The notes under the pieces are model-generated. The model was given only the letters and a program-made list of their open reading frames with translations, made no database searches and was not told the DNA's origin. 6,209 bases of DNA from a virus (lineage: Duplodnaviria; Heunggongvirae; Uroviricota; Caudoviricetes). This document shows positions 372 through 515 of the stretch, one piece after another. Location of the stretch: IMG/VR virus record IMGVR_UViG_2711768075_000007; one strand, 5' to 3'. Each line of letters opens with the position of its first letter. The stretch's first letter is position 1. Both the position numbers and the translations under genes were made by a program.

Positions 372-515
372 TTAATATCCATTTTTTGGGACTCCTGGCT
401 GATTAAGTATGTCGATAAGGCGTTTCCATCCGTCACGTAATTTACGGGTGATTCGTTCAAGTAAAGATTCGGAAGGGCAGCCAGCAACAGGCCACCCTGC
501 AATGGCATATTGCAT
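372..515 (-). CDS. cIII: cIII (FtsH inhibitor that stabilises CII); 47 aa with an altered C-terminus
   Basis: Minus-strand ATG at 515..513 preceded by AAGGAG. It translates to [47 protein letters not shown], matching lambda CIII through ...GVPKNG and then ending early. Too short to appear in the supplied ORF track. Confidence 0.8.

Follow-up and report, generated by a model that had tools for sequence, protein, structure and literature searches.

In lambda, the pL operon genes cIII, kil and gam overlap one another in succession, with gam at 32816..33232, kil at 33187..33330 (47 aa) and cIII at 33299..33463 (54 aa) in the lambda annotation, which agrees with the layout given in the initial annotation of the present locus. 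Lambda Kil blocks FtsZ ring assembly, and its expression from a derepressed defective prophage leads to filamentation and death of the cell (PMC3961180). A prophage segment of 6,209 bp, the whole of which was analysed and is referred to below as the window, carries a shortened cIII that runs into what looked like the start of gam, with no apparent room for kil. This raises the questions of whether kil is really missing from this prophage, which event removed it, and what that event left of the genes on either side.

The window is the immunity region of a phage 434-type prophage

The window is the reverse complement of the whole contig CYGT01000052.1 (6,209 bp) of the E. coli draft genome GCA_001286705.1; the proteins of this assembly and of its sister assemblies are labelled Escherichia coli. 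Over positions 1..6134 it is 99.9% identical to phage 434 (OL657226/OL657227), and this identity to OL657226 extends across cI, cro, oL and oR, which places the prophage in the phage 434 immunity group. Its content is the pL/immunity/replication region, in the order gam (partial), cIII, ea10, a Nun-like gene, N, oL/pL, hex, 434 cI, 434 cro, cII, O, P and the first 15 codons of ren. The arrangement follows that of the phage 434 pL operon (ea10 - cIII - kil - gam - bet), with the same gene order, the same 434 cI/cro immunity, and the Nun-like gene, N, hex, cII, O and P all shared over the 6,134 bp. The 434 cI gene is found in 100% identical copies in many E. coli genomes.

Compared with phage 434 base by base, the window shows, besides a gap of 98 bp, only six differences over 6.1 kb, of which one is an additional base at 275-278 and five are substitutions (280, 628, 819, 2607 and 2611). 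It thus departs from phage 434 in that 98 bp (kil) are missing, the gam leader has one extra T and one substitution, four other SNPs lie elsewhere, and ren carries an insertion sequence at the right end of the window:

6134/6135-6209: left end of IS100 (IS21 family, istA/istB), inserted in ren after codon 15; the contig ends within IS100

The initial annotation had supposed a resident prophage, and both the draft-genome contig and the IS100 copy in ren agree with that context. The ren::IS100 junction had no match in IMG/VR. In the sister contig L010 an IS100 end lies in exo, at about 7796-7871; since the element sits in ren in the one prophage and in exo in the other, IS100 struck these prophages at least twice.

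Two of the substitutions fall in operator oL2 (2603-2616), which reads ACAAGAAACATTGT in the window and ACAATAAATATTGT in phage 434. The change at 2607 is common to all natural prophages examined. That at 2611 is private to the window contig; it replaces A:T by G:C in the middle of the operator, outside the contacted bases, and repressor might bind less tightly at pL as a result. Between ea10 and N, at the position that ral and sieB occupy in lambda, lies a 293-aa ORF (1145-2026, minus strand), whose phage 434 counterpart is annotated 'Nun C-terminal peptide-containing protein' and which has no Pfam match on record in the sister contigs.

A 98-bp deletion between 11-bp direct repeats removes the kil domain

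A three-way alignment of the window, phage 434 (OL657226) and lambda contained a single gap in the window, of exactly 98 bp, extending from the kil start codon to that of the long gam ORF of lambda. In phage 434 a perfect 11-bp direct repeat, AAAAAATGGAT, marks the two ends of the missing stretch; its copies stand 98 bp apart (at 1875 and 1973 in L003), and one copy is kept in the window:

377..387, minus strand: deletion junction and sole remaining copy of AAAAAATGGAT, located by alignment and by base-by-base comparison with phage 434

The repeat is therefore present at both parental endpoints, a single copy is left, and the two repeats were spaced by just the deleted length, as in a deletion between direct repeats. 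The initial annotation had suspected a loss of roughly 98 bp between short direct repeats with truncation of cIII, and this was borne out by the alignment and by kil+ relatives with identical flanks. It had further described the repeats as flanking kil in lambda. A repeat does exist there, although the left lambda copy, AAAGAATGGAT, matches AAAAAATGGAT at only 10/11 positions; the repeats do not strictly flank kil, because the left copy includes the kil ATG and the right copy lies within kil and holds the long-gam ATG. The last 46 nt of kil are in consequence still in the window.

Such repeats are uncommon in this genome. Within 9.2 kb of phage 434, 11-mer direct repeats spaced by up to 150 bp form only three clusters, amounting to 7 pairs against 0.43 expected from shuffled sequences; the other two clusters are the ori iterons and a site in O. 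Both copies of the repeat at kil are translation start sites (an A-rich spacer, then ATG GAT), so that the deletion simply exchanges one ORF for another behind a single ribosome-binding site. The kil-start repeat would have been joined to the long-gam-start repeat by the loss of the 98 bp between the two AAAAAATGGAT copies, leaving one copy behind. Judging from these endpoints, slipped-strand mispairing in replication, or another short-homology, RecA-independent event, is the most likely route. The classic lacI deletions of Albertini et al. in 1982 reportedly arose between short direct repeats by slipped mispairing. Like such spontaneous deletions, the present one has its endpoints in a perfect repeat, keeps one copy and has a length equal to the spacing; mechanistically nothing sets it apart, except that both repeats happen to be start sites.

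The residual sequence of kil was searched for directly. The Pfam Lambda_Kil model (PF06301) covers Kil residues 2-32, which is the part deleted: codons 3-31 are removed, that is, the whole conserved domain. A tblastn and six-frame search of the window with Kil recovered only residues 32-47, while the same search of phage 434 recovered 47/47, and no ORF of about 47 aa with the conserved Kil domain was found. The suspected absence of a kil ORF was thus upheld, and a second kil copy elsewhere in the window was ruled out by the six-frame search. What is left of the gene is as follows:

340..387, minus strand: kil remnant, codons 32-47, found by tblastn and translation; untranslatable, lacking a start codon, with a stop at 405..403 that closes the frame upstream
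392..396, minus strand: former kil Shine-Dalgarno sequence AGGAG, 9 nt upstream of ATG 382..380; annotated kil ribosome-binding site in OL657226, now serving a 50-codon ORF

The kil start signals (AGGAG 396..392 and ATG 382..380) accordingly survive, and now open a reading frame beginning MDIN... in another frame than kil. Consensus scans detected no promoter or terminator in the deleted 98 bp, and no signals are annotated for this stretch in the lambda records; two terminator-like hairpins were found alike with and without the deletion. Loss of a promoter or terminator along with the 98 bp was thereby ruled out, as both hairpins are unchanged and none lies inside the deleted stretch.

Taken together, the window very probably carries a natural kil null allele of a phage 434-type E. 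coli prophage, produced by a 98-bp deletion between 11-bp repeats. Kil-null lambda made in the laboratory (the start-codon mutant CC4512, the in-frame kil delta-7, and Greer's nested deletions) likewise lacks Kil function in an otherwise intact pL operon. Filamentation and killing disappear when 7 kil codons are deleted, and kil-null phages show neither on derepression; their yield is normal and lysis comes slightly sooner (PMC3961180). A CRISPRi screen also classed kil as non-essential (PMC10695390). The laboratory alleles were engineered or lab-selected, some of them designed to spare cIII and gam, whereas the present one is natural, lacks kil codons 3-31, shortens cIII at its C-terminal end and places the kil translation start at the head of the leader ORF that follows. 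From this published lambda work, derepression of pL in the window prophage would no longer let Kil block FtsZ rings, nor cause filamentation or killing by that route. The phage itself would not be crippled, and the deletion should be harmless to it, because kil is non-essential and kil- yields are normal.

The truncated cIII retains its conserved domain

The deletion cuts into the 3' end of cIII, which overlaps the start of kil:

372..515, minus strand: truncated cIII, 47 aa, ending ...QPGVPKNGY with stop TAA 374..372; residues 1-46 identical to phage 434 cIII

The length, the ...GVPKNGY ending and the stop are those first read from the sequence. The last 8 residues of 434 cIII (SNNYGYPD) are replaced by a single Y, and the protein is therefore not the full-length, 54-aa form with the tail SN(N/T)YGYPD. 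The Pfam Lambda_CIII domain (PF02061) is complete, as residues 2-43 match 42/42 profile positions (E=1e-30), and it includes the amphipathic helix at residues 14-37; the exact 47-aa protein is annotated at NCBI as E. coli CIII. For lambda CIII, residues 14-37 are reported to be both necessary and sufficient for activity (PMC1838920, citing Kornitzer et al. 1991). Since the conserved domain is complete and contains this segment, the 47-aa cIII is probably active, and by analogy with lambda, where the segment suffices, it would still inhibit FtsH.

The 98-aa gam is preserved behind an out-of-frame leader ORF

The ATG at 382..380 corresponds to the N-terminus (MDIN...) of the long Gam ORF of lambda, as had been read initially. 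The ORF that it opens in the window is a different one from gam, and the two lie as follows:

230..382, minus strand: 50-codon ORF, MDIN... to HSGSS, stop 232..230; composed of the kil start codon, the lambda long-gam leader and a +1 shift, and ending 29 nt inside gam
295..312, minus strand: GC-rich, terminator-like hairpin GCCCGGCATTTCGCGGGC with a T-rich tail, within the leader ORF; found by consensus scan only, unchanged, and also present in phage 434
1..261, minus strand: gam of the 98-aa (GamS) type, first 87 codons, cut off by the end of the contig; starts at ATG 261..259, 7 nt after an AGGAG of its own (273..269)

The 50-codon ORF is out of frame with gam (frame offset 1), because the window has a run of four T at 278..275, against three in phage 434 and lambda. 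The leader thus gives 50 aa in place of the 138-aa GamL, and matches no Pfam family; NCBIfam gave no match for any of four small proteins. Two readings in the initial annotation had to be given up on this account: the MDIN... ORF is not an N-terminal extension of gam, and cIII does not abut gam, since what cIII overlaps, by 11 nt, is the leader ORF, and the gam ATG lies 110 nt downstream of the cIII stop. In the source assemblies the 50-aa ORF is labelled 'host-nuclease inhibitor protein Gam' despite having no Gam domain.

The extra T is no peculiarity of this prophage. A 43-mer over the T-run site matched 2357/5426 complete E. coli genomes at 42-43/43 nt, ungapped, and the kil+ prophages of ATCC 11775 and of strain 19KM2326N carry the same 50-codon ORF; the +1 T as a second lesion of the window prophage was therefore ruled out, the four-T state being common in E. 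coli. The long gam ORF was in frame only in lambda, phage 434 and the contig L005. The window gene itself is a Gam member, covering profile positions 1-87 of the 98 of Pfam Gam (PF06064; E=3e-57); gam is a 98-aa CDS in the phage 434 annotation and is complete, with 98 aa, in the sister contigs. Because the Pfam model has 98 positions, like the short form, the gene that matters is the 98-aa gam from ATG 261..259. The deletion leaves this gene untouched, with its own ribosome-binding site.

The junction also places the strong kil ribosome-binding site before the long-gam ORF, and the selected effect could in principle have been on gam and not on the loss of kil. After the deletion AGGAG stands 9 nt before the ATG, where the wild-type context of the long-gam ATG (GCTTATAAAAAATG) has no Shine-Dalgarno-like sequence. 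In L005, which keeps the in-frame 138-aa GamL, GamL output would rise, and GamL and GamS are both active when expressed (PMC5218532); in the window, more translation of the 50-aa peptide would bring more ribosomes across the gam start. Yet in 9/10 contigs with the junction, the window included, the long ORF is out of frame and yields the 50-aa peptide with no family match, and the commonness of this state in E. coli implies that GamL is not a conserved product. As the long ORF is usually out of frame, we consider an effect on gam a quite improbable reason for the allele. The hairpin at 295-312 now sits in an ORF with a strong ribosome-binding site, translation from which could affect its folding.

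The deletion is rare but present on independent contigs

A 43-mer over the junction, chosen such that kil+ genomes cannot seed a match, found no match in 5,426 complete E. coli genomes bar two 28-nt partial matches in kil+ prophages. Of these genomes 1,466 carry the cIII-kil-gam region and 207 the 434 immunity (434 cI), and the junction occurred in none of the latter (0/207). It was equally absent from 50,697 phage records and 72,556 plasmids, and the exact junction 35-mer from IMG/VR, the GTDB representative genomes and the JGI metagenomes. An exact look-up of the 47-aa cIII, by contrast, found it in draft assemblies, in 26 index blocks. The truncated cIII was present on 20 contigs, compared with at least 1000 each for wild-type 434-type cIII, Kil and 434 cI.

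All ten contigs retrieved (10/10, the window contig among them) have the identical junction. Nine come from the NCBI assemblies GCA_042938765.1, GCA_001285645.1, GCA_049894145.1, GCA_019575435.1, GCA_048120645.1, GCA_001284645.2, GCA_001283225.2, GCA_001277715.1 and GCA_001286705.1, and the tenth from the Logan assembly of SRR1184224. The window being a short contig of a short-read draft assembly, a collapse at the short repeat in assembly or sequencing might be suspected. A repeat of 11 bp is far below assembler k-mer sizes, however, and the same junction stands in 10 or more contigs that stem from different projects and pipelines, some of them >200 kb, with differing linked SNPs. These observations exclude an artefact for practical purposes, and we regard it as extremely improbable.

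The substrate for the deletion is widespread, well over a thousand E. coli genomes having the 11-bp repeat in perfect form, and the Kil variants in the collection differ by single substitutions only. That the repeat is so common, the deletion almost never seen and Kil highly conserved suggests that kil is normally kept by selection. No earlier description of this allele was found in the literature, in a search of incomplete coverage that makes for weak evidence. The lambda and 434 genes, the phenotype of kil loss and the deletion mechanism were known; the natural allele and its distribution appear to be new.

The deleted allele occurs in two haplotypes and at two integration sites

Over the immunity region that they share, all ten contigs show 99.75% identity or more to the window. 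Beside the deletion they fall into two flanking haplotypes, L005 on the one side and the other nine contigs, the window included, on the other:

L005: sites 278, 280 and 628 in the canonical phage 434 state, and about 25 sites in bet/exo likewise; long gam ORF in frame, 138 aa
Other nine contigs: sites 278, 280 and 628 in the state of kil+ 19KM2326N (L017) and of two kil+ IMG/VR contigs; long gam ORF out of frame, 50 aa
L007, L008, L009 and L014 (4/7 of those among the nine that reach bet/exo): the roughly 25 bet/exo sites in the 19KM2326N-like state

In bet/exo, L006 is mostly 434-like and L010 is mixed; L011 ends before the informative sites, and the window and L012 do not reach the region. 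Each deleted haplotype has a kil+ twin, namely phage 434 for L005, and 19KM2326N with the two IMG/VR contigs for the window group. The prophage of E. coli 19KM2326N (NZ_CP151038.1, at attB-lambda) resembles the window group in its 434 immunity region, its gam-leader haplotype CCATTTTC and its bet/exo haplotype, and shares its integration site with L005, L007 and L008, but differs from the window in having kil intact (47 aa), a 54-aa cIII and a diverged P/ren region. Two histories fit these data: at least two deletions at the same repeat, or one deletion together with a conversion patch of less than about 350 bp between sites 280 and 628.

The kil-deleted immunity region is joined to two integration modules. 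In L006 (9923-12429) a 380-aa integrase lies by icd, and in L005, L007 and L008 a lambda-type 356-aa integrase adjoins ybhC, which is the lambda attachment site. In the subgroup L006 and L009-L012 a 12-bp in-frame deletion (window 2918-2929) shortens hex, the repressor-protection gene, from 134 to 130 aa. Because of this hex deletion, the two integration sites and the IS100 insertions in ren and exo, the allele must have persisted for some time in resident prophages.

The same lesions can be read in another way, in which the deletion is one of several random events in a degrading prophage, without any gain from the loss of Kil. The IS100 copies in ren (window) and exo (L010), the 12-bp hex deletion and the rarity of the kil-deleted allele all agree with such neutral decay. 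Against it, the 6.1 kb are, other lesions aside, 99.9% identical to an infectious phage 434 with the remaining ORFs all intact, and the two flanking haplotypes and two integration sites (attB-lambda and icd) indicate that the allele persisted and spread, or recurred. We therefore consider neutral decay a real possibility, though one on the less likely side.

Discussion

The sequence evidence points to a natural kil null allele, made by deletion between start-site repeats, in a prophage whose cIII would remain functional and whose 98-aa gam gene is untouched. Its persistence could reflect either a mildly favoured loss of a host-toxic gene in a resident lysogen, or mere tolerance. By analogy with the killing described for lambda, selection against Kil toxicity is a plausible force behind the loss, and a lysogen could benefit under leaky or abortive induction. 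The rarity of the allele and the conservation of Kil, on the other hand, speak for a selection that ordinarily maintains the gene. Escape from a defence that senses FtsZ-inhibitor complexes was rejected as a driver, as lambda Kil reportedly does not activate CapRel-Ebc, the only such system described (PMC13423816).

A more far-reaching proposal, which we put forward as an unlikely one, is that the paired AAAAAATGGAT start sites form a recurrent switch in lambdoid prophages, in which one slippage deletes Kil and passes the strong start to the gam leader, and that this occurred at least twice, with leaky-pL lysogens selected to shed Kil. If it were true, L005-like haplotypes would make full GamL, and these lineages would be natural kil knockouts for asking what purpose Kil serves.

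For the annotation of such prophages, the locus teaches that E. coli prophages do not usually have the 'long Gam' ORF in frame, and that the 50-aa ORF is mislabelled Gam in the source assemblies. The benefit of Kil to lambdoid phages is still unclear (PMC3961180), as is that of phage division inhibitors generally (PMC13423816). The natural kil-null prophages and their kil+ siblings constitute matched pairs in which lysogen fitness, survival of induction and lysis timing can be compared.
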